From IMG/VR virus record IMGVR_UViG_2627853771_000002: DNA of 15,132 bases; one strand, 5' to 3'. Under the pieces are notes generated by a model. It was not told the DNA's origin. It was given only the letters and a program-made list of their open reading frames with translations, and did no database searches. Below, in pieces: positions 1-15,132 of this stretch; position 1 is the first letter of the stretch, and the number at the start of each line of letters is the position of its first letter. The stretch is from a virus. Lineage: Duplodnaviria; Heunggongvirae; Uroviricota; Caudoviricetes. Made by a program: the position numbers and the translations under genes.

Positions 1-798
1 TTAATGAACATTCGTCGCCGAAAACGAGTCTGTATCATTAGTGCGATGCAGTCTCTGCAAAGGATCTTGTTGATAAAATTGGCAGAAACGTTGCCACAAT
101 GAAGGGAAACGAGGAGCAAAAAGTTCTGGGGCGCTAAAGAAATATTCAGAAAGTACGGCAAAACATTCAGCAGGATCACTGGCAGCATAAGCATCAATGC
201 TCGCCGCATTCTCGCCAACCAATTCGATTTCTTCCTGAATGTTGTTCATTGCAGCATGAAGATCGTGTTCCCAGCCAGCAACCTCACGCAACGGAATAAA
301 GGGAACTCCGCTGGCGCGATCGCCGTTACGGGTGTCCAGCTTATGAGCGACTTCATGAATAATCAGGTTAAAACCAGAAGCATCAAAAGAATCTTGTATA
401 TCCAACCAGTTCAAAACGATAGGCCCTTGCTGCCAGCTCTGACCTGACTGAACAATACGTTGGTTATGCACCAGACCGATATCGTCTTCCCATTCATCAT
501 CGACCACAAATGGCGCAGGATAAATTAAGACTTCATGAAAACCATCCAGCCATTCCAGTCCTAACTCCAGAACGGGTAGGCAAAATAGAAGTGCTATCCG
601 GCAGCTTCTTAATGAATCCAGTTCAAAGCCCTGTAAAGGAACAAGCCGCTTTTGCTGTAAAAAACGTTCGGCAAGAGTGACTAATTTGCTTTGTTCCTGT
701 TCCGTCAGACCCGTTAAAAGGGGGATCGATAGTGCTTCCTGCCAGGGAAGGGCAGTTTGATGTGCTGATTCTTGTACTTTCCAGGGCCACTTAATCAT
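1..798 (-). CDS. mtfA: MtfA-like zinc-dependent peptidase (Mlc titration factor A), complete
   Basis: Minus-strand ORF 1..837; likely start is the ATG at 798-796 giving MIKWPWK..., stop TAA at 3-1. Contains an HExxH metallopeptidase motif (HEVAH). Sequence recalled as E. coli MtfA/YeeI; not searched. Confidence 0.85.
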
Positions 799-891: not shown

Positions 892-981
892 GGAGAGATG
901 CCGGAGCGGCTGAACGGACCGGTCTCGAAAACCGGAGTAGGGGCAACTCTACCGGGGGTTCAAATCCCCCTCTCTCCGCCA
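892..981 (+). tRNA. serU: tRNA-Ser, anticodon CGA
   Basis: GGAGAGA...TCTCTCC acceptor stem, discriminator G and terminal CCA; anticodon loop CUCGAAA gives anticodon CGA; long variable arm typical of class II tRNA-Ser; TTCAAATCC T-loop. Folded by eye. Confidence 0.9.
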
Positions 982-1028
982 CTATTCAAACACTTACAGC
1001 ATTCCCTTTCAGTGACCTGCATCCCGAT

Positions 1029-1062
1029 GAGAAAAATTGAGAAAATCCACTGAGAAAAATTC
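1029..1062 (+). repeat. Three direct copies of GAGAAAA(A)T between the tRNA and the integrase gene; candidate integrase arm-type binding sites
   Basis: gagaaaaatt at 1029-1038, gagaaaatcc at 1039-1048, gagaaaaatt at 1053-1062, lying 48-81 bp past the tRNA 3' end and just beyond the integrase stop. Confidence 0.3.
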
Positions 1063-1093
1063 TAGCGCCGAAGCATGCTCCGACGCCAAAGAA

Positions 1094-2068
1094 TCATCTC
1101 ATTTTCTTGTTCAACGTGGGGCTGATTTTAACTTTCCTGTCGTAAACAAGTACCTGTGATTCTGTCTTATGACCACTGAATTTTTGCTTATCCCTGCCAG
1201 ATCCTTCATAGTCTGAGATCCCTTTAGCCTTTAGATCATGGAAGGTGCAATCAAGTGGCCTACCAAGTTCTTCAGAAGCCGCGTTTCTCGCTTTTCTCCA
1301 TGCTTCATTAAATCCCTTGTATGAATAACGCTCACCATACATTGTCCTGATAACAGGGCCATCCTGTCCCCATTCCCTGCAAATATCCACAGCCGCACTA
1401 AGACGCTCAGTCCAGGCTTTGATCTGTTTAATACCAGTTTTACCTTGCTGTATGAAAATTCCTTTATCAAGAATCTGATTCCAGTTCATTTTAAGAACAT
1501 CAGATACCCTTGCAGCGCAAAGATACGCAATTTCCATCGCGGCTTTAACTGCAGGTGTCGCATGAGTGAAGATAGCTATGTACTCTTCATCAGTTATGTA
1601 GCGGTCGCGCTGGGGTTTAGGAAACTTATCGACACCAACACACGGATTACCTGGTACATAACCACGCTGATAACCCCAGCGGTATACACGAGACATTGAA
1701 CTATGCTCGTGATTAGCCTGAACACGGCTTCTTTTACCACGTGCATCCATGTAGCGTCGGACGTGTTCTGGTTTAATGGCCTTTGCTTCTGCATCGCCGA
1801 AAACCGCTAACAAGTATTTTTCATGTGCCAGGTAATCTTTTTGTGTCCTGGGGGCAAGGTCTGCATAGTCAGCACTATTTAAAAATTTTTTCCACAATTG
1901 TTGAAAGGTGAGTAGTTTTTTTCGACCTTCAACGACTTTCTCGTAAGCTAACCAAACCTCCGCTTTAGAAGCGTTTGCTGGGGCTAGATTCTCGGTAGTA
2001 CCTCCTGGCTTCCAGTAGTAACCGGAAGGGCGGAAAAACACACCCTTCGGCATCCACTCATTCAGCAT
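1094..2068 (-). CDS. Tyrosine-type site-specific recombinase (phage integrase)
   Basis: Minus-strand ORF of about 324 aa; C-terminal region carries an integrase-like motif (FHDLKAKGISDY). It ends 113 bp from the tRNA 3' end and reads toward it, the usual prophage arrangement. Start taken as ATG at 2068-2066 (TTG at 2071 is also possible). Confidence 0.85.
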   Translation of the reverse strand: MLNEWMPKGVFFRPSGYYWKPGGTTENLAPANASKAEVWLAYEKVVEGRKKLLTFQQLWKKFLNSADYADLAPRTQKDYLAHEKYLLAVFGDAEAKAIKPEHVRRYMDARGKRSRVQANHEHSSMSRVYRWGYQRGYVPGNPCVGVDKFPKPQRDRYITDEEYIAIFTHATPAVKAAMEIAYLCAARVSDVLKMNWNQILDKGIFIQQGKTGIKQIKAWTERLSAAVDICREWGQDGPVIRTMYGERYSYKGFNEAWRKARNAASEELGRPLDCTFHDLKAKGISDYEGSGRDKQKFSGHKTESQVLVYDRKVKISPTLNKKMR

Positions 2069-2216
2069 CAATCACATCTTGGGATACAGACGCTTGGATA
2101 ATATCTGCTTCGCTATAGTCGCCCCGCATAACCAGAAAACGAGCCTCATCGGAGCAGAGGTAATCAACTGCCCCATCAAATTTCCCCTTGCTGGTTGGTT
2201 TGGTTACGTTGCTCAT
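2058..2216 (-). CDS. Small hypothetical protein (52 aa) in the excisionase position upstream of the integrase
   Basis: ATG at 2216-2214 preceded by GGTGGA; translation MSNVTKPTSKGKFDGAVDYLCSDEARFLVMRGDYSEADIIQASVSQDVIDAE. Its start overlaps the upstream stop as ATGA and its end overlaps the integrase start. Below the 60-aa cutoff of the ORF track. No recognisable Xis motif. Confidence 0.4.
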   Translation of the reverse strand: MSNVTKPTSKGKFDGAVDYLCSDEARFLVMRGDYSEADIIQASVSQDVIDAE

Positions 2217-2347
2217 GCTGTCCACCATTCAATAAACATGCAGATACCAACGGTTACTACGGCAATCAGCACCCAGCAGATCACATCTAACAGGGCGGCG
2301 AGCCGACGCAGGGTGTATTTGCTGTAATTCTCAGGTTCAAAATTCAT
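2213..2347 (-). CDS. Small single-pass membrane protein (44 aa)
   Basis: ATG at 2347-2345 preceded by GGAGG; translation MNFEPENYSKYTLRRLAALLDVICWVLIAVVTVGICMFIEWWTA with a hydrophobic C-terminal half. ATGA overlap with the ParB-like stop and with the next ORF's start. Confidence 0.4.
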   Translation of the reverse strand: MNFEPENYSKYTLRRLAALLDVICWVLIAVVTVGICMFIEWWTA

Positions 2348-3891: not shown

Positions 3892-3946
3892 GGTGATGCT
3901 GCCAACTTACTGATTTAGTGTATGATGGTGTTTTTGAGGTGCTCCA

Positions 3947-4222
3947 GTGGCTTCTGTTTCTATCAGCTGTCCCTCCTGTTCAGCTACTGACGGGGTGGTG
4001 CGTAACGGCAAAAGCACCGCCGGACATCAGCGCTATCTCTGCTCTCACTGCCGTAAAACATGGCAACTGCAGTTCACTTACACCGCTTCTCAACCCGGTA
4101 CGCACCAGAAAATCATTGATATGGCCATGAATGGCGTTGGATGCCGGGCAACTGCCCGCATTATGGGCGTTGGCCTCAACACGATTTTACGTCACTTAAA
4201 AAACTCAGGCCGCAGTCGGTAA
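3947..4222 (+). CDS. insA: IS1 InsA
   Basis: 91-aa [43 protein letters not shown]..., recalled as IS1 InsA. Confidence 0.9.
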
Positions 4223-4644
4223 CCTCGCGCATACAGCCGGGCAGTGACGTCATCGTCTGCGCGGAAATGGACGAACAGTGGGGCTATGTCGGGGCTAAAT
4301 CGCGCCAGCGCTGGCTGTTTTACGCGTATGATAGTCTCCGGAAGACGGTTGTTGCGCACGTATTCGGTGAGCGCACTATGGCGACGCTGGGGCGTCTTAT
4401 GAGCCTGCTGTCACCCTTTGACGTGGTGATATGGATGACGGATGGCTGGCCGCTGTATGAATCCCGCCTGAAGGGAAAGCTGCACGTAATCAGCAAGCGA
4501 TATACGCAGCGAATTGAGCGGCATAACCTGAATCTGAGGCAGCACCTGGCACGGCTGGGACGGAAGTCGCTGTCGTTCTCAAAATCGGTGGAGCTGCATG
4601 ACAAAGTCATCGGGCATTATCTGAACATAAAACACTATCAATAA
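4141..4644 (+). CDS. insB: IS1 InsB (expressed as an InsAB' fusion by -1 frameshifting)
   Basis: 167-aa [28 protein letters not shown]... in the -1 frame relative to insA, overlapping its 3' end. Confidence 0.85.
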
Positions 4645-5769
4645 GTTGGAGTCATTACCTAAAGAATCAAGGATTAAACCTGAAATCCTTAATACATCCT
4701 CGGGATGTTCAATGAAAATACGATTGTTATCATGTTCAAGTCCGGCTCTTTTAATTTCATTACCGGTTATTTCATTGATATCAATTGGTAACTGTATGTT
4801 TGAGCGATTCTTCTTGTCATAATAGCGAACCAGCCAGCGGTTTGTTTTTCCTTGGAAAAGAATAGAGTAATAGGACTCTGTATCTTTGGCTTGAAGTTCG
4901 TATGCAGGGCCTATAATAGAACAGATTTTTTCAAATAAAATTCTTTCATTATAGGTTGTTACTATGTTGGGGTTCTCTGCATCGACAATATCTGCGCGCT
5001 CATCAATTACATTATTTTCAGTTACATCAGCAGGGGATTCTAATTCAGGAATAGATGTTCTTGATGAAAGACCAGAAACAACCATTTCACTTACTGACCT
5101 CTCTACGGCCTGCCTCACCAATGGAGTTATTGTTTCTATAAATCTTTGATTTAATTGACGACCAATATTTGCTCGTCCTGCAACATATCTAACAAATTCA
5201 TGATCTACTTCCCGAAGGCTTGTACTCACGACTTTAACAAATGCAGAAATATAAACACTCTCTTCTGCAAGGGTTCTTAGGGCCTCTGGTTTGAATTTGT
5301 CATGGCGGAATCTAAATAATTGCTCAGCATCAGAATCTTTAATGTCATCCATCATGATTCGTAAAAATGGCGTTGAATCCATTATATTTTTTTCATTGAG
5401 ATCCGTAAAAAAGCGCCATTCAATTCCATTAGTAATTGCTGATATTGTCACCTCAGGAGTAGAATTAAAATACCTAGATAATTGAGGACAATGGTTGTCC
5501 ATTTTTTCTTTACAACCTTTGGCCTCAATAAACATAACGGGAACACCTTGGCAGAATAGAGCATAATCTACACGCTCACCCACTTTCACACCAGGGAAGT
5601 CCGCACCATATTCAGCTTTGACTTTTTGCGGATCATATGCGTTAAAGCCTAGGATGTCCAAAAAAGGAAGTATCAAAGCCTGCTTGGTTGTCTCTTCCGT
5701 TGTGCAGTGTTCTCTAACATTTTTAACATGTTCAATGTGATTTTTAAGACGTACTTTGAAGTTTTCCAT
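4579..5769 (-). CDS. Repressor-linked protein with an HsdR-N-like PD-(D/E)xK nuclease N-terminal domain and an uncharacterised C-terminal domain; 3' end replaced by IS1 sequence
   Basis: ATG at 5769 (MENFKVRL...) after GGAGGA. The first 130 aa or so follow the pattern I associate with the type I restriction HsdR N-terminal nuclease fold (D...VDYALF...[10 protein letters not shown]...QLSRY...TNG). Codons 4660-5769 are native; 4579-4659 are read from the IS1 right end. Lies downstream of, and on the same strand as, the repressor gene, inside the operator-bounded immunity region. Confidence 0.6.
4660..4668. repeat. IS1 target-site duplication, right copy (TAAAGAATC)
   Basis: Identical to 3883-3891. 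Confidence 0.85.
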
Positions 5770-5939
5770 GCATCCTCCATGCAAAGTGAAAACCTGCTGT
5801 TAAATCAAAGCAAGTCACAATCCCGGATAGGCTTCATACAAGCCAATCCCCCACAGGGATTGAGTTATGCAAGCGAATCAATCTCAGAGCTTTTAACATG
5901 TATGGAGCTTAGAGATATTGTCCGTTAGACCATATAAGC

Positions 5940-6416
5940 TTAAGCTCTGGCTTTCGTTTGTTTTTTTCCATCTTCCTCCTGCTCTGCCCATCTCCTTATC
6001 TTCATCTCTAATGAGTCTAAATATGCTTTAGCATCGCTATCTACCCAGCCAGGTATACGCTGTCCTTGCTCTAAGAGGACAAAATCAATGATAGCCTTTT
6101 TTTCTCTCGAAGCCTTATTATAGAGCTCGTCAATAGAACCATTTTTAACTATGGGATCTGTTGCGGGCTCACATGTATCAGTTAGCGGGTATCCCTTTAG
6201 TCCCCAGTGCTCGGGGCCCACAACATCAGAAAAGTAGTTCCAAAGCTCTGGTAGCTTCTCTTTCGATATGGAGCCTTTATTGATCCAGTCATGGATTGAT
6301 GGGGGTTTTATTTTGAAATGACGTGCGATTTCCGCCTTACTCTTGGCAGAACCTATTGAAAGCTTCTTGTCTATGGCCTGCTCGATCGCTCGGCCCAATT
6401 CTTTACCACTAAGCAT
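5940..6416 (-). CDS. CI/RacR-like helix-turn-helix repressor with no S24 peptidase domain
   Basis: 158-aa ORF with an N-terminal HTH-like segment (LSGKELGRAIEQAIDKKLSIGSAKSKAEIARHFKIKPPSIHDW); no Ala-Gly/Ser-Lys autocleavage features seen. Divergent from a Cro/YdaS-like gene across an operator-containing region. Confidence 0.7.
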   Translation of the reverse strand: MLSGKELGRAIEQAIDKKLSIGSAKSKAEIARHFKIKPPSIHDWINKGSISKEKLPELWNYFSDVVGPEHWGLKGYPLTDTCEPATDPIVKNGSIDELYNKASREKKAIIDFVLLEQGQRIPGWVDSDAKAYLDSLEMKIRRWAEQEEDGKKQTKARA

Positions 6417-6443
6417 TGCCTAATAATCCTCATAACCTATAGC

Positions 6444-6486
6444 TTAGGCAATTCCTATTGATTGTTTATTAGGCTTAGCCTAATAT
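6444..6486. promoter_or_regulatory. OR-like operator region with a rightward promoter
   Basis: Perfect 8+3+8 palindrome TATTAGGC-TTA-GCCTAATA at 6467-6485 and a degenerate copy at about 6444-6459. -35 TTGATT (6458-6463), 17-bp spacer, -10 TAATAT (6481-6486); the palindrome sits in the spacer. Confidence 0.55.
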
Positions 6487-6517
6487 CTGCTTGTGTGGAA
6501 ATCATAGGAATCCGTTT

Positions 6518-6781
6518 ATGAGAAGTAGCCTTGAAGCAATCAGTGAAGCCTGCCGCATTGTTGGGGGACAAGCCGCTTTGTCAAGGAATCTAGGCATCTC
6601 ATCACCAACAGTGAATCAATGGACAACGGGCATTAGGCAAATACCTGCGGAACGATGTCCTGCGATTGAGAAAGCTACTGGTGGTGCTGTCACCTGCGAA
6701 GAGCTTCGTCCTGACATTGACTGGGCCTATTTAAGAGGTGCAGCAATGCGAAAGCTTAATGTCACTGCATCAAATTTGTAA
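6518..6781 (+). CDS. YdaS/Cro-like HTH regulator
   Basis: 87 aa from the ATG at 6518 (AGGAA seven nt upstream). Motifs GGQAALSRNLGISSPTVNQW...IPAERCPAIEKATGGAVTCEELRPD match my recollection of the YdaS/Cro-type family. The ORF track starts at a TTG at 6491. Confidence 0.7.
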   Translation: MRSSLEAISEACRIVGGQAALSRNLGISSPTVNQWTTGIRQIPAERCPAIEKATGGAVTCEELRPDIDWAYLRGAAMRKLNVTASNL

Positions 6782-6809
6782 CTACCACCCGAGTTTGAAA
6801 GGAGTAGGT

Positions 6810-7262
6810 ATGAACCTCAAAGAAGTCGTGAAATCTATGTGCAAAGCATATCCAGGTGGGCGCGAAGCAATGGCTGGCGCACTGGGAATGACGGTGACGC
6901 AGTTTAACAACAACCTTTACGAGAAAAACGGCTGTCGTTTCTTCGAAGTCAGCGAACTGGAAGCGATGGAGGACATCTCGAATACATCTCACCTGGCTGA
7001 ATATTTTGCCCGCCGTCGTGGTGCTCTGCTGGTGGATGTTCCGCACCTGGAAGAACTGGACCGCGTGGACTTGTTTAGCCGGGCAATGCGTACCTCTGCC
7101 GCCAGGGGGCAGGTTGATCAGATTATCGAACAGGCGCTTGAAGATGGCGTTATTGAAAGGCACGAGGCCGAAGAAATCATGGTGCATCACCGCCGTCACC
7201 TGGCAGCTCGTGAAGAAGAGATTGCCGCAATCATCACGCTTTTTTCACGCAAAAAGAAGTGA
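6810..7262 (+). CDS. CII-like / YdaT-like regulatory protein
   Basis: 150 aa from the ATG at 6810 (AAAGGAG five nt upstream), directly after the YdaS-like gene as in Rac-type prophages. Family assignment is from position and general resemblance only. Confidence 0.45.
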   Translation: MNLKEVVKSMCKAYPGGREAMAGALGMTVTQFNNNLYEKNGCRFFEVSELEAMEDISNTSHLAEYFARRRGALLVDVPHLEELDRVDLFSRAMRTSAARGQVDQIIEQALEDGVIERHEAEEIMVHHRRHLAAREEEIAAIITLFSRKKK

Positions 7263-7289
7263 CGCCAGCGAGTTGCAGCTCCTGGCGTC

Positions 7290-8129
7290 GTGGCGTGTCG
7301 TTATCAGTGGAGATTACTAACGCATGAACAGTTTATCAACACAATACCGCAGGTCGCAACTTGTAGCGCGGCCAGTTCCTGGTGGAGCAGGGCCGGTGCA
7401 GTTCGTGTAGAGCCATTCGTTGGTGGTGGGTCGGTATTCCTGAACAGCGAAAAGCACGCAGATTACCTGCTGGCGGACGTTAACCCGGACCTGATTAATC
7501 TGTATCAGATGTTAGCGGTCGTGCCGGATGAAGTGGAATTGAAGGCCCGCTGGATGTTCGAGCACATGCGGTCACCAGAGCGCTATGAGCTGATCCGTTC
7601 CGAGTTCAACTCTCAGACGCTGGATGCTACTGAACGCGCAGCTGCATTCCTGTATCTCAACCGGCATTGCTTCAATGGTCTGATGCGCTACAACCAGGCG
7701 AACAAGTTCAATGTGGGCTGGGGAGGCTACAAGGCTCCGTATTACCCGATGGATGAGATGAAAGCCTTCGCGGCTATGGCGCATAACTGCGTATTCATGA
7801 CGGCTGATTACCGCCGGACAATCAGCCTGGCCGGGAAAGGGGATGTGGTTTACTGCGATCCGCCTTACGAACCGATGCCGGGAACAACCGGATTCACCGC
7901 CTACGCCGCTGGTGGTTTTAACTGGGAGAACCAGGTAGACCTGGCGAAGCAATGCGTATCAGCCTTTCACCGTGGGGCTCGGGTAGTGATTTCTAACTCA
8001 TCTGCACCGAAGGTTCTCGACCTGTACCGGGAGCATGGTTTTAACCTGCAATTCATCAACGCGCGCCGTTCGATCTCCTGCAAAAGCAGTACGCGGGAAG
8101 TCGCAAAAGACGTTGTAGCGATCCTTTAA
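7290..8129 (+). CDS. DNA adenine methyltransferase (Dam family, N6-adenine)
   Basis: Motif I EPFVGGGSVFLN and motif IV CDPPYEP; overall resemblance to E. coli Dam (FLYLNRHCFNGLMRYN, ISNS). The only in-frame start after the upstream stop is the GTG at 7290; the nearest ATG (7324) is out of frame, so the start is uncertain. Confidence 0.75.
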   Translation: MACRYQWRLLTHEQFINTIPQVATCSAASSWWSRAGAVRVEPFVGGGSVFLNSEKHADYLLADVNPDLINLYQMLAVVPDEVELKARWMFEHMRSPERYELIRSEFNSQTLDATERAAAFLYLNRHCFNGLMRYNQANKFNVGWGGYKAPYYPMDEMKAFAAMAHNCVFMTADYRRTISLAGKGDVVYCDPPYEPMPGTTGFTAYAAGGFNWENQVDLAKQCVSAFHRGARVVISNSSAPKVLDLYREHGFNLQFINARRSISCKSSTREVAKDVVAIL

Positions 8130-8138
8130 GGGGGCTAA

Positions 8139-8981
8139 ATGAAACTGACTTTACCATTTCCACCGAGCGTAAATAGTTACTGGCGCGCCCCGAGCAAGGG
8201 ACCGCTGAAAGGCAGGCATCTGGTAAGCGAGACAGGGCGCAAGTTCCAGCAGGCAGCGAGAGCGGCGATTATTGAGCAACTGCGGGCCGTTCCCCGGCCA
8301 TCCTCAGATCTGGCCGAGGTTCACATAAACGTTGTTGAGGGCGCGGGGCTTGAGCTTGATCCTGATGATGATTCACAGGTTCTTAAAGCGATTGGTGGCG
8401 GTCGCCTGCTTAATATTGTCACCTTTACTAAGTCAGGGACTTACACTCCAACTAAAGGGACGAAAAGAGTGCGGGTGAAAGTTTGGGGAGCGGGGGGAGG
8501 TGGCCAGAATGCTCCAGTTAGTGTGGGCGCATCTGGAGGTTGTGCTGGTGGATTTTCGGAAGGGTTATTTAATATTTCTGATAACGAAACTATATCTGTG
8601 ACGATAGGTACTGGTGGCAGTGCTGTTGCTGCTGGTGTCTCGTCTAAAGGCGGGAATGGTGGTGATACAAGGTTCGGGAGTTTAATCTCAGCTACTGGAG
8701 GGAGTGGTGGCGGGGCTACAGTTCCTGCTGGAGGTATCGGAAGTGGCGGGAACATTTTAAATATTACTGGCGAAATATCTCAAGGTGGTCTGTATTATGG
8801 TTCTGATGCTTTTATTGGCGGGGCTGGAGGATCTGCATTTTCATCAACGGGTGGCAATGGCCACTTCGGTAGTTCTGGCGATGATGGCGGTTTCCCCGGC
8901 TCAGGTGGTGCCGGGGGGAATGGTAACTATTCATCAGGAAAAGGAGCGAATGGTTTAGTTTACCTTGAAGAGTTTTCCTGA
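8139..8981 (+). CDS. RusA-like N-terminal region fused in frame to a glycine-rich, fibre-like C-terminal region
   Basis: N-terminus MKLTLPFPPSVNSYWR... resembles the RusA resolvase N-terminus (ITLPWPPSNNRYYR), and ...GGGRLLNIVTFT resembles the RusA C-terminus. From about aa 110 the protein is a GGxGG-rich tract of about 170 aa. ATG at 8139 follows AAGGGGG. Confidence 0.5.
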   Translation: MKLTLPFPPSVNSYWRAPSKGPLKGRHLVSETGRKFQQAARAAIIEQLRAVPRPSSDLAEVHINVVEGAGLELDPDDDSQVLKAIGGGRLLNIVTFTKSGTYTPTKGTKRVRVKVWGAGGGGQNAPVSVGASGGCAGGFSEGLFNISDNETISVTIGTGGSAVAAGVSSKGGNGGDTRFGSLISATGGSGGGATVPAGGIGSGGNILNITGEISQGGLYYGSDAFIGGAGGSAFSSTGGNGHFGSSGDDGGFPGSGGAGGNGNYSSGKGANGLVYLEEFS

Positions 8982-10051
8982 TTATTTTTGCTTTGAGCGT
9001 CCGCCCTTATTTTTGCTCTAATTTTAATTAGTGGCTTGTCTATTAATATTACACAAACGATCCCAAGTGCAATTGATATTGGGTAGCCTAATAAAAAGAT
9101 GGATAAGCCACGATTTTCACCACCAATAGCAAGCCATGCTAGAAATCCACCAAAATATTGACAAAGAAAAATTGGATAGGCCAGGTCACCAAACCACTTG
9201 AGTATTTTCTCAAGATGTATGTTTGTCTTTATTTTTAATAATACCAGGGTTGTAAACAATGCTATTACATTATTGGTGTAGTAAAGTATTATGTTGTACT
9301 GACCTAATGGATTAATTGTATATAAATGCCAATTGGTAATAAAAATCCCGATGCAAATAAATGTTATTAAAAAAGCTTTGTGTGGAGAAAGATACATAGC
9401 TTTGAACTTTCTATGGGCAAAATAACCCAGAGAACCCATGCTAAAAGGAAGTGTTGCAGCAAGGAATGGGAAATACGCCATATCAAAAGAATGGTGTACT
9501 ACATATACGTAAGCATGATAAAGCAGTGAAAGCAGAATCGACGTAATGGCTGTAAATTTATTTCGGGCTATGAAAAGCCACAATAAAAAATAACATGTTA
9601 TCTCAACACCCACTGACCATGATGATGTGACTATTCTGAATCTATTACCATCAATAGCAAAGTGATAAATGGATGAAAAGGCACCGAATGGATTTGCTAC
9701 AGCATTATCAGAAAGGAAAGCCCAGGGGAAGATTAAGAGGTTTCCTAATAAATCTCCAGGTAAGAAATTGCCTGTCCAGTTTGAGTGGAATTCCTTTGCG
9801 GATGGAATTAATTTTATAATAAGAAAGCCCATGACGAGAAAAAATATATATGCCGGGAATAACCTCAGTATTCTATTTTTCCAAAACATAGAGAAGTTGA
9901 ACTTGTATGTTTCATGCAAAATGTATGTTATTAAAAAACCACTAATAACATAGAAGCAATTCACTGCAAAGTTGCCAAGTGCAGGTATGCGAGCCGTTAA
10001 GTGAAAAGCAATGACGCACGATGCCAAAAAAAACCTTATTAGGCCAAGCAT
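8960..10051 (-). CDS. Acyltransferase-3 family integral membrane protein (O-antigen O-acetyltransferase-like, Oac/OafA type)
   Basis: 363-aa very hydrophobic ORF with motifs typical of the family (RFFLASCVIAFH, FYVISGFLITY); strongly AT-rich relative to its flanks. Its 3' end overlaps the convergent glycine-rich ORF by about 22 bp. Confidence 0.75.
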   Translation of the reverse strand: MLGLIRFFLASCVIAFHLTARIPALGNFAVNCFYVISGFLITYILHETYKFNFSMFWKNRILRLFPAYIFFLVMGFLIIKLIPSAKEFHSNWTGNFLPGDLLGNLLIFPWAFLSDNAVANPFGAFSSIYHFAIDGNRFRIVTSSWSVGVEITCYFLLWLFIARNKFTAITSILLSLLYHAYVYVVHHSFDMAYFPFLAATLPFSMGSLGYFAHRKFKAMYLSPHKAFLITFICIGIFITNWHLYTINPLGQYNIILYYTNNVIALFTTLVLLKIKTNIHLEKILKWFGDLAYPIFLCQYFGGFLAWLAIGGENRGLSIFLLGYPISIALGIVCVILIDKPLIKIRAKIRADAQSKNNQENSSR

Positions 10052-10314
10052 TATTTTATCTCCGCGCCAATATCGCGCATTTTATTTATTACATTGTTAA
10101 GTTGCTCATCAGACAGAACAAGCTGAGCTGCAATATAAAACAGTATGTGTCTTGACATTACCCTGGGGCTCTCTCCGCCAGTGTATTTCCGCCATTGGCT
10201 ATCGCTGGCTACACCTGCGAGCCCTGCCATTTGGTTTCCGGAGTAATTTAGTGCGGATTTCAGTCTGGCTAAATCTTCCTGCGTTGGAGGGGTGTATTTA
10301 TTTATTAAAATCAT
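10051..10314 (-). CDS. Small XRE-type HTH protein co-transcribed with the acyltransferase
   Basis: 87 aa from the ATG at 10314 (track ORF starts at a GTG at 10338). HTH-like segment LARLKSALNYSGNQMAGLAGVASDSQWRKYTGGESPR. Its stop overlaps the acyltransferase start (TAATG). Confidence 0.5.
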   Translation of the reverse strand: MILINKYTPPTQEDLARLKSALNYSGNQMAGLAGVASDSQWRKYTGGESPRVMSRHILFYIAAQLVLSDEQLNNVINKMRDIGAEIK

Positions 10315-10415
10315 TCTCTTATTTAACCGTTTAAACACGTAAGGCGATGTTAGCCCTGAAGGGGCGGGGCGTCAATCTTAATTGCTTCATTGAAAAGATG
10401 AAGACAGGAACAGGT

Positions 10416-12410
10416 ATGGACAAAAGATATAATACCGGCAATCCAAGACCTTCAAATAGCATGAAGGATCTGAATGATAACGCCCTGGCGTACGATGATT
10501 TCCTGAACAGCGAAAGCGATACTTTTATAGATCGTTTTGGTAACGCCCAGGATACGATAATTGGGGCTACTAAAAAAATGGCAGCTGCTACCGACGCTGT
10601 TATTGATGAAGCCCGCCAAAACCTGATCCCTCTCAGCCGGCAGTACATGACGCTGGCGGCGGCGCAGGCGGATATTGCGAATATTCCGGCAGGTTCAACA
10701 ACCTATGTCCGCAGTCAGGACGGAAGCTCTCTGGCCGATGAGTATATCAACCTCGCTGGAACGCTGCAGCCAACCGGACGGCGGATGGTTCGTGACGACT
10801 ACGCATACCAGGTATCGCCAGACAGCGTGACCCTGGCAGCATATGATCCGGAGACTTCCCGCGTGGCTCCATTTTTAAATACAAGCGGCAGATTAATTCA
10901 AATCGGTCCTGACGGAAAATATTACGAACTTTTAACCCAACAAGAATCCGAACTCTATGCGCTGGGCCGGGAGGGTTCTATACCGCAGTTTATTGGCGGT
11001 GAAAAAGTGTGGCGGATGACGGTTGATTCAACCACAAACCAGATCGTTGAAGCTTATACGGTTGGTGGGAAGCACTGGATTTACTCAGACGGTGGCCTGG
11101 TAGCTGTTAATAACGGAAATGGCGGTGGTGGTGGCGACGATGATGCCAACCAGCTCCCTGAGTATGGACTTCATTTGTCAGGGTCTACTGTGTACCCCTA
11201 CTCAGAGACAGTGCCTGTATGTTTTATCTTTGTGACTGCTGGGCAATCCAACGCTCGAGGATATTGTCCTGACGCCGATCAAACCATTGTCGCAGCAACG
11301 CCGATATATCCTGATAACGCTTTCATGCTCAGCGGCGGGGTTAGGCGTACAGGGACACGCAGCACTACTCTGGTGCCACTGGTTGAGGCAGTAAGTGGGA
11401 CAGATAAAGAAACGGCCGCAAGCGGCCTCGCGAACACCTTCATTCGCGATATGGCTGCAGCTACCGGAATCATGCCGCGCACGCTATCAATCGTATGTGC
11501 GCAGTCTGGTCAGGCTTACGAGTACCAGAAACGGGGTAACCAGGTATATCAGTATCTGCTCGATTCAATCGAAGACTGCGTAACGGCCTGTAAAGCACGC
11601 GGCTGGCTGCCGATTGTTCTCTGCGTTGACTGGATGCAGGGAGAGTCCGACGAGGACTGGTCAGGATTACGAGAAGGAATGTATGAATCACGGATGAGGC
11701 AGTACCAGAGACAAATCACCAGCGACATCATCGCAAGAACGGGTCAAAACGAACCGCCGATTATCGCCATTACCCAGCTGGGGTATGTCAATGACGGGCA
11801 TGGTGCATTTACAGGCCAGTACGCGCGACTGGCGTCGACGCGATTGCACGGAAAAGAGCAATTCAGGCTGGTCAATAGTTTGTACCAGTACGATTTTATT
11901 TCAGACGGTCTGCACTTGACGTGTGCGGGCCAGAACCGGCGCGGAGCAGCTGTGGCGAGAGCGCTTCTCCAGGAGTGGTTTACGAGCGGCTGGTCAGGGA
12001 TGGTTCCGACCAGTTTCGTGTGGAACTCACCCACGCAGATACAAATCAATGTCCCAGCGTATACGAACCTGGTGCTGGACACGACTACGATCAACACCTC
12101 CGGTCTGGCCAATTACGGCTTTAGCTACACGGATGAGACTGGTGCTCCACCTGCTATATCGAGCATCGCGATCAGCTCGGACGGCAAGGGCGTGCTGATT
12201 AACCTGGCGACCGCCCCCTCTGGACGTTTTGGGCGCGTTTCCTATGCGACAGCAGAAAACCCACTTCAGAGCGGCGCATCTGTAAAACCTTCCGGGCGGA
12301 CTCTTGGTGCAAGAGGGTGTGTTCGATCTTCCGCTGGAATCATATGGGTGTATGACACATCCGTGACTCTTTACGACTGGCTCCCCGCTTTTCGTATTAA
12401 CGTTTTCTGA
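10416..12410 (+). CDS. Tail-fibre/tailspike-like protein with an internal SGNH/SASA-type carbohydrate esterase domain
   Basis: Esterase block motifs in order: GQSN (VTAGQSNARGY, nt about 11241-11252), QGESD (DWMQGESDED, nt about 11631-11651) and DxxH (SDGLHLT, nt about 11904-11918). A Gly/Asp linker (NGNGGGGGDDD) precedes the domain. Start taken as the ATG at 10416 (AGGAACAGG upstream); the maximal ORF begins at 10347. Confidence 0.55.
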   Translation: MDKRYNTGNPRPSNSMKDLNDNALAYDDFLNSESDTFIDRFGNAQDTIIGATKKMAAATDAVIDEARQNLIPLSRQYMTLAAAQADIANIPAGSTTYVRSQDGSSLADEYINLAGTLQPTGRRMVRDDYAYQVSPDSVTLAAYDPETSRVAPFLNTSGRLIQIGPDGKYYELLTQQESELYALGREGSIPQFIGGEKVWRMTVDSTTNQIVEAYTVGGKHWIYSDGGLVAVNNGNGGGGGDDDANQLPEYGLHLSGSTVYPYSETVPVCFIFVTAGQSNARGYCPDADQTIVAATPIYPDNAFMLSGGVRRTGTRSTTLVPLVEAVSGTDKETAASGLANTFIRDMAAATGIMPRTLSIVCAQSGQAYEYQKRGNQVYQYLLDSIEDCVTACKARGWLPIVLCVDWMQGESDEDWSGLREGMYESRMRQYQRQITSDIIARTGQNEPPIIAITQLGYVNDGHGAFTGQYARLASTRLHGKEQFRLVNSLYQYDFISDGLHLTCAGQNRRGAAVARALLQEWFTSGWSGMVPTSFVWNSPTQIQINVPAYTNLVLDTTTINTSGLANYGFSYTDETGAPPAISSIAISSDGKGVLINLATAPSGRFGRVSYATAENPLQSGASVKPSGRTLGARGCVRSSAGIIWVYDTSVTLYDWLPAFRINVF

Positions 12411-12419
12411 GGATAAAAA

Positions 12420-13220
12420 ATGAGACTGATTTACACACTAACTGGACTGAATAACCCCTTACTCCCTGTGTACTCACAAACAGCGGCAGAGAAAGCGATC
12501 TCAGAACTATCCCCATCAGTATGGACACCAGTGAAGACAGAGTTTCTAAAAATGGGGTCTGGTGCAAAAGTAGTAGCTATCTCTAACCGATTAGATGGCG
12601 GACTTTTCAAGTCACTGGAGACCCTCGAGCCATCCACAAAGCTGAATGGTTCTGTTTTGCAGGGGCTTAATTTCTCCGGTGCATCCGGCATGGCTGGTGA
12701 TACGGCGGTGGTTATGGACGCAAACATCAATACTTTTGCATTCATCTATCAGCTGCCAGGTGGGGCGCTTCCGGCTACGCCACAGGACAGAGCGGTTATC
12801 GCAACCCAGGAAAGCACACCTCATGGCGTCGGCATTCGTACAACGTCAGCAGGTTCATTCCCGATTTTTCTGAATGGAGGGATCGAGGCCGATCTGGCAT
12901 TTACTCCTAACAATATAGGGCAATCTTTATTCTGCGCTGTAGTTATGTGCTCTAACAAGGCTGCTGGATCCTATGCAATTGCATACCAGCGGTCAGATCA
13001 GTCTGCAGTGACCAGCCGACAAGTGACGGGCTATACAATCCCAGCGTATAGCCCGTCTCAAAAAATGAGTATTGGCGGAGCAGGCAATGGTTCAGTGTCT
13101 CCGTTAACATCCGTTTTGTCAGAATGTTTGGTTTTCCCCGGCAAATATGCATATGGGACCAGCACACTGGATGTCATCCTGGCATATCTGATGGAGAGGA
13201 TTGGAAAAATCACGGCCTAG
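12420..13220 (+). CDS. Hypothetical 266-aa protein co-transcribed with the fibre/esterase gene (possible fibre partner or assembly protein)
   Basis: ATG at 12420 lies 6 nt after GAGGA and 9 bp after the upstream stop. No recognisable motif. Confidence 0.5.
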   Translation: MRLIYTLTGLNNPLLPVYSQTAAEKAISELSPSVWTPVKTEFLKMGSGAKVVAISNRLDGGLFKSLETLEPSTKLNGSVLQGLNFSGASGMAGDTAVVMDANINTFAFIYQLPGGALPATPQDRAVIATQESTPHGVGIRTTSAGSFPIFLNGGIEADLAFTPNNIGQSLFCAVVMCSNKAAGSYAIAYQRSDQSAVTSRQVTGYTIPAYSPSQKMSIGGAGNGSVSPLTSVLSECLVFPGKYAYGTSTLDVILAYLMERIGKITA

Positions 13221-13254
13221 AATTTGCCGAATGCATCCGAGTCGGTCCGCAGCG

Positions 13255-13413
13255 ATGGAGCAGGAGAGAGTCGGCGGCCGCCGCCGGATAATGACTGAAG
13301 AAGTGGTGGAGCGGTGCCGCAGAATGCTGGAGAACGGCGCTACCCGGCAGCAGGTGGCTGATGTGACAGGCGTGGACGTGAAAACAATCTACAAGTACCT
13401 CCCGGCGACTTGA
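13255..13413 (+). pseudogene. 3' fragment of a serine DNA invertase gene (Hin/Gin/Pin-type C-terminal HTH only)
   Basis: ...GGRRRIMTEEVVERCRRMLENGATRQQVADVTGVDVKTIYKYLPAT-stop resembles the C-terminal HTH of Hin/Gin/Pin invertases; no catalytic N-terminal domain precedes it, because the upstream sequence is the end of the 266-aa gene. Confidence 0.55.
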
Positions 13414-13490
13414 AGGCAAAGATTTCACTACTTTTCCTGATATGTTACGTTTGGCTTAATCAATTCATTCAGCTTTGAAAACAGTTTGGT

Positions 13491-13913
13491 TTGTTCGTGA
13501 ACGGTAAGAAAACAATAAGTTTTGAGCAATTTTTAACTATTAACAGCAATCTTGTTTCCATCTCAGATACATGGGCTGACTTGTGGGCGTTAATTTTTCA
13601 CACGGGTTTAAGCGCTGGAAGGCTGCTGAGTATTCGATATGATGATATTGATGGTGACTTGATACTGATACGAAAACAGGGTCACCTGAAGGAGCTACGT
13701 GTTAAATCAACCCCTCCAGTGGAGGGGATCATTGCTCGTAGAAGAGAACGCTATCCAGAAGATGTTTTTTTATTTCAGAGCCATTCTAACCGTGTGAAGT
13801 ACCAATGCCGGCCGGTCACTATAATTGCTTTCAACGCCGCTTTACGTCGCGCCGCTAGATCATTACCAGACGTTAACGTAAGCAGTAGTAGCGCGAGAAA
13901 CATACCGGACTAA
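13491..13913 (+). pseudogene. FimB/FimE-like small tyrosine recombinase remnant, C-terminally truncated and degenerate
   Basis: Box-I-like region LWALIFHTGLSAGRLLSIRYDDIDGDLILIRKQG parallels FimB/FimE, but the catalytic Arg position is Ser and the His/Arg/Tyr C-terminal motifs are absent. No ATG start (TTG/GTG only). Confidence 0.4.
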
Positions 13914-13931
13914 CCGCCTGTCCAGTCGCGT

Positions 13932-13985
13932 GTGGCCGATGTGACAGGCGTGGGGGTGAAGACTATTTACAAATATTTGCCAGTA
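13932..13985 (+). repeat. Second diverged copy of the invertase 3'-end segment
   Basis: gtggccgatgtgacaggcgtgggggtgaagactatttacaaatatttgccagta encodes VADVTGVGVKTIYKYLPV; most differences from copy 1 are synonymous. In frame with ORF 13491-13913 but separated from it by a TAA. Confidence 0.5.
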
Positions 13986-14003
13986 CAATACGGCGATAAA
14001 AAC

Positions 14004-14029
14004 CCCCTTGAGCAGGCACACTCAAGGGG
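14004..14029 (-). terminator. Hairpin with a T-run on the minus strand; possible terminator for leftward transcription
   Basis: CCCCTTGAG (14004-14012), 8-nt loop, CTCAAGGGG (14021-14029); the preceding plus-strand AAAAA is a T-run after the hairpin on the minus strand. Confidence 0.3.
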
Positions 14030-14140
14030 AAAATACTACATAACATCATTGCTGTGTGCGTCTTTGCGCTCGTCTATCTTCCAAGAATATGCCTAAAGCT
14101 TCCAGATATTTCTGGTCTGAGCTGTTACATCATGGAGTAG

Positions 14141-14198
14141 GTGCCGATGTGATAGGTTAAGAGCGAAGATGATCTGTAAGTACCTTCCGACGTCGAGG
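14141..14198 (+). repeat. Third, more degenerate copy of the invertase 3'-end segment
   Basis: gtgccgatgtgataggttaagagcgaagatgatctgtaagtaccttccgacgtcgagg aligns with copy 1 (gtggctgatgtgacaggc...aaaacaatctacaagtacctcccggcgact). Confidence 0.35.
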
Positions 14199-14533
14199 GG
14201 CAATGACCATGAATTTGGGTCTATACCATCCCAATTCATATATTCTTTGTAAGTCTATGAAATATAGAGCAAAGTATTCTGTTCGAAATGAACCATATGG
14301 AATAGCCAAAGGCTAAAATGCCCAGAGTAAAAACAACAATCAGCAAGTCCGTCTGTGACATCTTATATCCATTTTGCAGTAGCAGGTTTTGAGAAAAGAT
14401 AGTTCATAGTTGGCACATAGACAACATAATCACTAAGTGAAACCAATATCAGAGGCTAAAAGGTGACTGGTTTCCTCCTCAGTGTTCCTGATTGATAGCT
14501 GGAACCTGTATTGATCAGATCTCTTAATGAATC

Positions 14534-14553
14534 TACTGTATATAAAAACAGTA
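14534..14553 (+). promoter_or_regulatory. LexA (SOS) box overlapping a promoter
   Basis: TACTGTATATAAAAACAGTA matches the E. coli consensus TACTG(TA)5CAGTA at 18 of 20 positions (CTGT-N8-ACAG intact). A possible -35 TTGATC lies at 14510-14515. Confidence 0.75.
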
Positions 14554-14571
14554 TTTTCGGGAGGTGAAGTT

Positions 14572-14730
14572 ATGCCGCGAAACTCAGATATCGAAATAGC
14601 CTGGCGTCAGGCAATTGTCATTGAGCCTAATGGCCGTCGCACCGTGACAACGTCCGGTTTTATCCGGGAACTCGCAAAAGTTAACTGGATATGGTCACCG
14701 CGCCAGGCTAACCAGTGGATAGAGCACTGA
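14572..14730 (+). CDS. Small hypothetical protein (52 aa) immediately downstream of the LexA box
   Basis: ATG at 14572 lies 7 nt after GGGAGG; translation MPRNSDIEIAWRQAIVIEPNGRRTVTTSGFIRELAKVNWIWSPRQANQWIEH; stop 9 bp before the UmuD-like start. No family recognised. Confidence 0.45.
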   Translation: MPRNSDIEIAWRQAIVIEPNGRRTVTTSGFIRELAKVNWIWSPRQANQWIEH

Positions 14731-14739
14731 CATTCCGGG

Positions 14740-15132
14740 ATGTCTCAACGCAGGAAGGCGATGAGCTCACGTTCCAGTTATACAACCCAAACGGAGGGCT
14801 ATAACGTGGGATTTCCGTCGCCAGCTGCTGACTATGTTGAACGGCGTCTGACCGTTGATTCACTCTGCGGTACCGGCCCCAATACTCGGATAGTACAAAC
14901 AGAAACCGGCTATGCCGTAGTGGATTGCTTCGTAAAACCAAAGCAAGGAGATACCGTTTTAATTCAATACGGCGGCGGCACTGATTTTGCAAAAATTATG
15001 GGCCGGGCATTTATTACACGAGACGGTGAAGCGTTGGAAGGTGAGGCCCTGGATGATGTTACAGTTGTCGGGGTAGTGACATTCGTTATCAATCGGATAG
15101 GGAAGGATGATGATGATTATCCAGTAATATGA
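14740..15132 (+). CDS. UmuD-like (peptidase S24-like) protein, apparently lacking the catalytic serine and the Cys/Ala-Gly cleavage site
   Basis: GFPSPAADYVERR matches the conserved UmuD/MucA/RumA segment and the C-terminus (DDVTVVGVVTFVI) matches UmuD (LDVFGVVIHVV). Where those proteins have GDSM/GSSM, this one has GYAV, and VG replaces CG/AG before FPSPAADY. An alternative start is the ATG at 14761 (AGGAAGG upstream). The stop TGA at 15130-15132 overlaps an ATG at 15129. Confidence 0.7.
   Translation: MSQRRKAMSSRSSYTTQTEGYNVGFPSPAADYVERRLTVDSLCGTGPNTRIVQTETGYAVVDCFVKPKQGDTVLIQYGGGTDFAKIMGRAFITRDGEALEGEALDDVTVVGVVTFVINRIGKDDDDYPVI

Follow-up and report, generated by a model that had tools for sequence, protein, structure and literature searches.

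The segment from 892 to 2,068 of a 15,132-nucleotide stretch of DNA (virus record IMGVR_UViG_2627853771_000002; the whole stretch is called the window here) very probably corresponds to the left attachment junction (attL) of a decayed lambdoid prophage of the ST64B/KpF5 type, inserted in the transfer RNA (tRNA) gene serU. In this interpretation, to which we assign a probability of roughly 0.88, the short repeats between the tRNA and the integrase gene (int) are arm-type sites of the encoded integrase (Int). The element is a decayed remnant of a lambda-like prophage, about 14.5 kb in length. It is of an ordinary, well-understood kind, with a lambda-type ST64B/KpF5 integration module at a known hotspot, and serU is documented as an insertion site of prophages and pathogenicity islands (PMC7067040; PMC7545054). 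An initial annotation of this DNA had proposed attL of an island. The junction stands, and the island is a degraded remnant from which the excisionase gene (xis) and the start of int are gone.

Attachment junctions at serU

The window is Escherichia coli chromosome, as nine complete genomes match 88-95% of its length at 99.9-100% identity; these genomes differ by insertions of insertion sequences (IS). The single tRNA found in the window by ARAGORN is tRNA-Ser(CGA) at 892-981 on the plus strand. It is complete at the left junction and has the sequence of serU in strain K-12. As initially described, an integrase gene reads toward it: an open reading frame (ORF) of 325 amino acids (aa) occupies 1094-2071 on the minus strand, with its stop codon at 1094-1096. 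The distance from this stop to the tRNA 3' end had been given as 113 bp; the closeness is real, and the exact figure is 112 bp (982-1093). On the other side of the tRNA, the minus-strand ORF at 1-837 is annotated as mtfA in a near-identical genome (RefSeq), and mtfA adjoins serU in K-12 too. It is the chromosomal side of attL, as had been proposed. Features of the left junction are as follows.

1..798, minus strand: mtfA, host gene truncated at the start of the window (as annotated by RefSeq in a near-identical genome, L001 15001-15798)
892..981, plus strand: serU, intact tRNA-Ser(CGA) (ARAGORN; four-way alignment of attachment sites)
892-919, plus strand: 5' part of serU, host DNA (four-way alignment)
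from about 920 on, plus strand: part of serU in the identity block common to the phage (four-way alignment)
920..983, plus strand: attL common core, 64 bp identical in attB, attP, attL and attR (four-way alignment; exact attR copy)

The core starts at base 2 of the anticodon stem and extends 2 bp beyond the CCA end. The initial annotation expected the second junction to carry a repeat of the tRNA 3' end and saw none in the window; we likewise found no second copy inside the 15.1 kb. An exact 64-bp copy of 920-983 occurs 271 bp past the window end, and is followed by host sequence and yodB. The draft contig L014, in which this attR core was located, begins inside the IS1 element of the window and is identical to window positions 4554-15132 (0 mismatches in 10,579 bp). 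The repeat is likewise present in L001 and L010-L013 and in the complete genome NZ_CP145662, whose gene order is asnT, mtfA, serU, an island of ~15 kb, "tRNA-OTHER", yodB and zinT. In K-12, serU directly adjoins yodB, which represents the empty site. The distance from core to core is 14,483 bp in the genotype of the window and 13,706 bp in IS-free copies.

15403-15466 (window-equivalent): attR core, on contig L014 (GCA_030177415.1); also L001 30887-30950

KpF5 is a complete Klebsiella phage genome from wastewater, and has the 64-bp segment between its tail genes and int. We aligned four sites: attB of K-12, attL of the window, attR of L001 and attP of KpF5. On the left of the core, attL agrees with attB, and attR with attP; on the right, attL agrees with attP, and attR with attB. 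This is the pattern that the Campbell model requires, and it marks recombination between attP and attB. All three marks of a Campbell-type tRNA prophage are present, namely a repeat at both ends, an attB with an attP, and a regenerated tRNA. In addition, the window ends in 236 bp (14897-15132) that match the sequence immediately left of attP in KpF5.

The "tRNA-OTHER" that RefSeq (PGAP) annotates at attR is 137 nt long, and occurs at L001 30812-30948 and L002 19003-19139 (window-equivalent about 15328-15464). In NZ_CP145662 it holds an exact copy of window 920-983, and ARAGORN does not call it as a tRNA. It is a displaced 64-bp serU fragment together with phage P-arm DNA, and no tRNA gene.

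Site occupancy was counted over 5426 complete E. coli genomes. The serU site is uninterrupted in 3856. Identical gene content at serU in all related strains, together with the absence of a tRNA 3'-end repeat, had been named as an outcome that would speak against an inserted island, and neither was observed. The KpF5-type attL of the window occurs in 31 genomes, whereas the 606R7/CP-933U-type attL, which belongs to a different type of serU integrase, is far commoner (1152 genomes, O157:H7 strains among them).

Repeats resembling arm-type sites

Three direct repeats of the GAGAAAA(A)T type, reported initially between the tRNA and int, are present at 1029, 1039 and 1052. A T precedes each, so that they read as TGAGAAAA(A)T with starts at 1028, 1038 and 1051; their bodies are GAGAAAAAT (1029-1037), GAGAAAAT (1039-1046) and GAGAAAAAT (1052-1060).

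1028..1037, plus strand: P'1, candidate arm-type Int site TGAGAAAAAT, +108 from the core start
1038..1046, plus strand: P'2, candidate arm-type Int site TGAGAAAAT, +118 from the core start
1051..1060, plus strand: P'3, candidate arm-type Int site TGAGAAAAAT, +131 from the core start; its reverse complement is the T-rich tail of a hairpin
1061..1090, minus strand: terminator-like hairpin of 13 pairs directly after the int stop codon (terminator scan; RNA fold -25.3 kcal/mol, z = -2.8)
15293 and 15355 (window-equivalent, beyond the window): P1 and P2, in the P arm on the attR side

Elsewhere in the 15.1-kb window, both strands together contain only one further copy of TGAGAAAA(A)T. In KpF5, five of the six copies fall within 251 bp around the core (34.9 of 38.3 kb searched). 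TGAGAAAA is the commonest 8-mer in the 501-bp KpF5 attP, with five copies, and none of 300 shuffles reached four. The clustering of the repeats is far above chance.

We compared the offsets of these copies, counted from the first core base, in the four relatives for which both arms are readable. Chris1 has the same pattern as the three listed here, its inverted P-arm copy being taken from the 8-mer count.

KpF5: P direct -110; P inverted -47; P' direct +108, +118, +131
ST64B: P direct -109; P inverted -47; P' direct +109, +119, +132
606R7 type: P direct -112; P inverted -47; P' direct +107, +117, +130, +143

In ST64B the positions are kept despite divergence of the surrounding arm DNA. The motif itself varies with the phage: it is CTTGGAAT in the 606R7 type, TTGGTATA in Chris1 and Evi, CTTAGAAT in BUCT708, TTCGCCAT in mEp390, TTCCTAATAT in ZF40 and TTCATAATA in Fostie. 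In a 606R7-type prophage region of 49.9 kb, all six copies of CTTGGAAT are in the two arms. KpF5 and ST64B share both the Int N-terminus and the TGAGAAAA motif, and 606R7, Chris1/Evi and mEp390 differ in both. A motif that changes with the N-terminal domain of Int while its positions stay fixed argues strongly for arm-type sites. The three repeats are therefore very probably P'1-P'3 of the integrase, a role that the initial annotation had suggested and that their clustering, geometry and covariation with the Int N-terminus support at the level of sequence.

Two relatives show variations on this layout. The serU prophages of the CP-933U/606R7 type have four P' repeats with a 13-bp unit, CTTGGAATATTTT (at 377-420 of L024, the reverse complement of NZ_CP039403, and in O157:H7 matches), compared with three in the 606R7 record, which is copy-number variation of the putative arm sites. 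In Evi, the tRNA-like core corresponds to the 3' end of another tRNA and points the opposite way with respect to int. Three repeats lie beyond this core, and the whole is possibly a rearranged attP layout.

Integrase

The ORF adjoining the repeats matches the Pfam families Phage_integrase (E 3.9e-10) and Phage_int_M, and PHROG integrase families. The encoded protein is 99.7% identical to KpF5 Int, 100% identical to that of several Klebsiella prophage records and 86.6% identical to Sb28 of Salmonella phage ST64B. Remoter relatives, at 44-60%, are found in the E. coli phages 606R7 (60%), Evi (51%), mEp390 and Fostie, in Citrobacter phage Chris1, in Pectobacterium phage ZF40 and in Stenotrophomonas phage BUCT708.

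1094..2068, minus strand: int, lambda-family tyrosine integrase, 5'-truncated (99.7% identity to KpF5 Int; ATG codons at 2068 and 2053)
1270-1272, in int: Lys codon at the position of the second catalytic Arg (Arg-II), residue 275 of the 319-aa frame from 2053 (alignment to lambda Int)

By sequence, no solved structure is closer than lambda Int (E 5e-12, core-binding and catalytic domains), and the alignment covers its residues 101-342, including the equivalents of K235, H308, H333 and Y342. An AlphaFold2 model built from 37 homologues (mean pLDDT 86.5) predicts three strands and then a helix in residues 5-45, and the top Foldseek matches are the lambda Int structures 1Z1B, 1Z1G and 5J0N. Full-length lambda Int chains align over 333-351 columns, compared with 270-285 for N-truncated chains, which indicates that the predicted N-terminal domain is included in the fold match. 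Variability within the protein is greatest in the N-terminal 45 residues.

Predicted position of strand exchange

Integrases that target tRNA genes are generally expected to exchange strands in the anticodon loop. In the window, the stem arms CCGGT and ACCGG form an inverted repeat about the 7-nt loop at 924-930. A lysogen of the 606R7 type, NZ_CP039403, constrains the crossover of its own integrase: the tRNA segment of the phage differs from host serU at two compensating positions of the variable arm, and attL has the phage version of this arm, whereas attR has the host version. Strand exchange by the 606R7-type Int thus occurred within the equivalent of 920-938. By homology, the window Int is predicted to exchange strands in the anticodon stem-loop, at 924-930.

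919..935, plus strand: anticodon stem-loop CCGGT ctcgaaa ACCGG, with predicted core-type Int sites flanking a 7-bp overlap at 924-930 (sequence)
984..996, plus strand: ATTCAAacacTTA, one base off the consensus WATCAANNNNTTR of integration host factor (IHF), tentatively a possible H'-like bending site (read from the sequence)

The ATTCAAacacTTA string is conserved in ST64B, 606R7 and Chris1. The first ~15 bp past the core are alike in the phage P' arm (ATTCAAacacTTA) and in the B' flank of the K-12 host (TATCAAtgacTTA), and both resemble the IHF consensus. Positions 984-996 may serve for bending; alternatively, the captured tRNA segment may once have been longer, and the similarity a residue of it.

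Decay of the element

Homology to the int genes of KpF5 and ST64B starts at window position 2062, which is codon 9, so the native N-terminal sequence MGRKRAPG is lost. The sequence fused to int at 2061/2062 is a truncated early gene. RefSeq annotates the fused 324-aa ORF as an ordinary, intact integrase. Exactly nine of the complete E. coli genomes have the 2061/2062 junction, and 16 others keep homology only to 2062. Ec-U1, the one of those 16 that was examined, has a full-length int followed by a DUF4224 xis.

The excisionase gene beside int is absent from the window: KpF5 homology ends at 2062, and nothing in the window corresponds to xis of KpF5 (PHROG excisionase, E 1e-29). The gene lies directly upstream of int in KpF5, ST64B, mEp390, ZF40, Fostie, BUCT708 and the E. 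coli strains Ec-U1 and 382634_2f. A 56-aa ORF upstream of int was considered as an alternative excisionase and rejected; it is the first half of a 106-aa early protein and matches no excisionase family.

A second fusion, at 8326/8327, joins the 5' part of rusA in frame to the 3' end of a gene for a Gly-rich tail protein, and marks a deletion of late genes. The rusA'::Gly-rich fusion is found on contigs in 48 blocks of a public assembly collection. The annotations of genomes identical to the window include no terminase, portal, capsid, tail or lysis genes. The E. coli HS serU prophage, which shares the right part of the element, retains head and baseplate genes and has only a fragment of the same int. 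Without IS1 the island measures 13.7 kb, and it does not amount to a complete lambdoid prophage with modules for replication, lysis, head and tail.

2058..2228, minus strand: truncated early gene encoding the first 55 of 106 aa, joined to int at 2061/2062 (full-length in phage vB_VIPKPNMC05)
2229..8326: early region, KpF5-like, with ParB-like, HSDR_N/DUF450, RacR-type repressor and Cro/CII-like genes, a Dam methylase gene and the 5' part of rusA
3892-4659: IS1, 768 bp with a 9-bp target duplication, in the HSDR_N/DUF450 gene resembling a "type I restriction endonuclease" gene
8139-8981: rusA'::tail-protein in-frame fusion ORF, with the RusA N-terminus and a C-terminal Gly_rich_2 domain (junction 8326/8327)
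8327..15132: right-hand segment of the remnant, with 99.98% identity to the serU prophage of E. coli HS
8327..15132, content: 3' end of the Gly-rich tail-protein gene, acyltransferase, sialate O-acetylesterase, UmuD-like fragments

Sister genomes have IS3, ISEc52 or ISKpn26 near the position of IS1, or no IS there. The cargo at 8960-12410 comprises genes for an acyltransferase-3 family protein (minus strand) and a sialate O-acetylesterase of 664-687 aa (SASA domain, plus strand), common to the E. coli HS serU prophage at the same 99.98% identity. These genes may be morons for surface modification or the use of sialic acid.

A history of insertion and decay can be proposed from these features. 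The phage entered serU by integrase-mediated recombination between attP and attB. Since 64 bp of the tRNA, beginning in the anticodon stem and reaching the 3' end, are duplicated in attP, insertion restores an intact tRNA at attL and leaves a partial copy at attR. In this reaction, the stem arms would act as core-type sites around the 7-bp overlap, with strand exchange in the anticodon stem-loop, and the Int N-terminal domain would bind P'1-P'3 and two further copies, one direct and one inverted, in the P arm near attR. Such an arrangement would correspond to the heterobivalent architecture of lambda Int. One deletion took xis and the first eight codons of int. Another, which joined rusA' to the tail-protein gene, removed all head, tail and lysis genes, and IS1 has also inserted. 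Given the loss of xis, of the int start and of the late genes, and the IS1 insertion, the remnant is most likely fixed in the chromosome, unless Xis, and perhaps Int, came in trans from a related phage. The remnant probably cannot excise by itself.

Alternative explanations

Several observations weigh against the interpretation as attL with arm-type sites. The crossover was mapped in a relative that is 60% identical, and the window Int is placed by homology to it. P'3 overlaps the T-tail of the terminator-like hairpin, so that the A-richness of the repeats could partly have another cause; this copy may have two roles, as arm site and terminator tail. A full-text literature search pairing ST64B with "arm-type" found no paper. 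A profile of the 80 N-terminal residues of Int, compared with the sequences in PDB, gave chance matches only and no lambda Int N-domain, so that the assignment of an arm-binding domain depends on the predicted fold. Finally, Arg-II of the RKHRH pentad (lambda R311, in the HxxR motif) is Lys in this protein (TFHDLKAKG), which is atypical for the lambda family. This Lys is invariant in the 37 homologues, at 55-99% identity, and appears to be an unusual natural variant of the pentad. The perfect Campbell junctions and the complete phage genome of KpF5 imply that the family is functional, and Lys-bearing integrases of this kind are clearly active in nature.

It seems highly improbable that the repeats are chance A-rich sequence, or only the U-tract of the int terminator, with no protein sites. 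The reverse complement of P'3 does form the T-rich tail right after the 13-bp hairpin past the int stop, and in ST64B the hairpin is likewise followed by TTTTTTTCTCA. However, one T-run suffices for a terminator, whereas there are three phased copies 10 and 13 bp apart, and two more about 110 and 47 bp across the core. The concentration of copies at the KpF5 attP and the result of the shuffles also argue against this explanation, as do relatives that keep the positions with motifs that are not T-runs, such as TTCGCCAT and CTTGGAAT. Quite unlikely, too, is binding by the DUF4224 excisionase, a host protein or some other factor instead of the Int N-terminal domain. Since xis co-occurs with int in intact relatives, covariation of the motif with Int and with Xis is not fully separable. 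However, two P-arm copies (one inverted) and three direct P' copies by the int 3' end reproduce the arrangement of Int arm sites in the lambda attP, which is established knowledge, whereas lambda-type Xis sites are tandem and occupy one arm only. Moreover, the motif follows the N-terminal sequence of Int, with KpF5/ST64B on one side and 606R7, Chris1/Evi and mEp390 on the other, and the N-domain of the Int model has the lambda-like three strands and helix.

The nature of the element might also be read differently. An autonomous mobile element that still excises itself from serU would fit the intact attL and attR cores and the presence of all five arm repeats, as well as an int frame of 319-325 aa that RefSeq annotates as intact, and low-level circles have been reported for Sp14, an O157 lambdoid prophage with a defective Xis (PMC2669165). 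We give this view little weight, as xis is deleted, int is without its native start and the basic N-terminal tail MGRKRAPG, no promoter-like site was found in 780-2400, the morphogenesis and lysis genes are all missing, and IS1 has inserted. Both deletions are common to nine complete genomes of varied sources, which fits vertical inheritance of a fixed remnant, and the loss of xis and the first eight int codons leads us to expect that a search for excised circles would be negative without a helper. A variant in which the remnant is not inert but depends on such a helper is rather unlikely: with attL, attR and the five arm repeats intact and an Int frame of nearly full length preserved, a superinfecting phage of the KpF5/ST64B type, providing Xis and native Int in trans, might excise the remnant or recombine with it. 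Natural activity of the Int family with Lys for Arg-II is a separate part of this proposal. We rejected a tandem island, in which the region from serU to yodB comprises two unrelated elements with the integrase belonging to the left one only. The sequence left of 8326 is KpF5-like, and that right of 8327 is E. coli HS serU prophage and is absent from KpF5; however, there is no internal copy of the 64-bp core, and the last 236 bp of the window and the 270 bp after them correspond to the P arm of KpF5 with its P1 and P2, so both ends come from one attP type. E. coli HS carries a fragment of the same int, and the 8326/8327 junction is an in-frame fusion of rusA' with the tail-protein gene, typical of deletion. 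Two elements in tandem are therefore barely credible.

Comparison with known systems

The integration module of the prophage remnant can be compared with that of lambda, whose Int is the best solved-structure match both by sequence and by fold. In both systems the 3' end of int abuts the P' arm, which has three tandem direct repeats, and the P arm has two. The N-terminal domain of the window Int family is predicted to be a three-strand sheet and a helix, as in lambda, and its native N-terminus, MGRKRAPG...P..V, resembles the MGRRRSHERRDLPPNLY of lambda Int. A gene for a recombination directionality factor is directly upstream of int in intact relatives of the element, again as in lambda. Unlike lambda, which has a 15-bp core in an intergenic site, the element targets a tRNA gene and has an identity block of 64 bp. 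Its arm motif is another one and one of its P-arm copies is inverted, Arg-II is replaced by Lys, the N-domain is not detectable by a sequence profile, and the proteins are only ~20% identical.

ST64B is closer. Apart from the 86.6% identity of its Int, its attP core is the corresponding segment of tRNA-Ser(CGA), it has TGAGAAAA at the same five positions, and its own xis is upstream of int. Several substitutions set apart its core, which follows serU of Salmonella, the arm flanks have otherwise diverged, and it is a full-length prophage with xis, whereas the window contains a remnant. In the E. coli HS prophage, a lambda-type head module is joined to a baseplate-type tail module, an organization that we take to resemble that of ST64B.

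The closest relatives are KpF5 (OR327748) and the related Klebsiella prophages Kp4882-3 and P7641, whose Int proteins are 99.7-100% identical to that of the window. The attP of this type equals the P' arm of the window plus the P arm on the attR side, and the early regions are 86-98% identical. In contrast to the window element, KpF5 has a complete genome, derived from virions, that includes xis, a native int and structural genes of the HK97-like kind, and the HS-type cargo genes are on the window element.

Elements of the CP-933U/Sp14 (vB_EcoM-606R7) type share attB in serU, the left boundary of the core and the geometry of the arm sites, and have a 60% identical Int with a DUF4224 xis upstream of its gene, as in intact relatives of the window element. 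They differ in their arm motif (CTTGGAAT versus TGAGAAAA), in having three or four P' copies, and in a phage tRNA segment with a compensatory double change in the variable-arm stem. The pathogenicity island PAI-serU of uropathogenic E. coli CFT073 and 536 (the TcpC island) uses the same tRNA gene as insertion site (PMC7545054). At 22 kb, it is a different kind of element, and was compared by insertion site only.

Implications

These results are of use mainly for annotation. The boundaries of this serU island are now fixed, by the core at 920-983 and, 271 bp beyond the end of the window, by the repeat of this core. An integrase annotated as intact by PGAP proves to be 5'-truncated and to be without its excisionase, and the "tRNA-OTHER" at attR is explained. 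If the remnant did respond to a helper phage, such action would yield hybrid phages carrying the acyltransferase and sialate O-acetylesterase cargo. These findings do not challenge the current understanding of site-specific recombination. Rather, integrases of the serU type form a natural series in which the positions of the arm sites are fixed and the motif varies with the N-terminal domain, and this series could guide work on swapping specificity.

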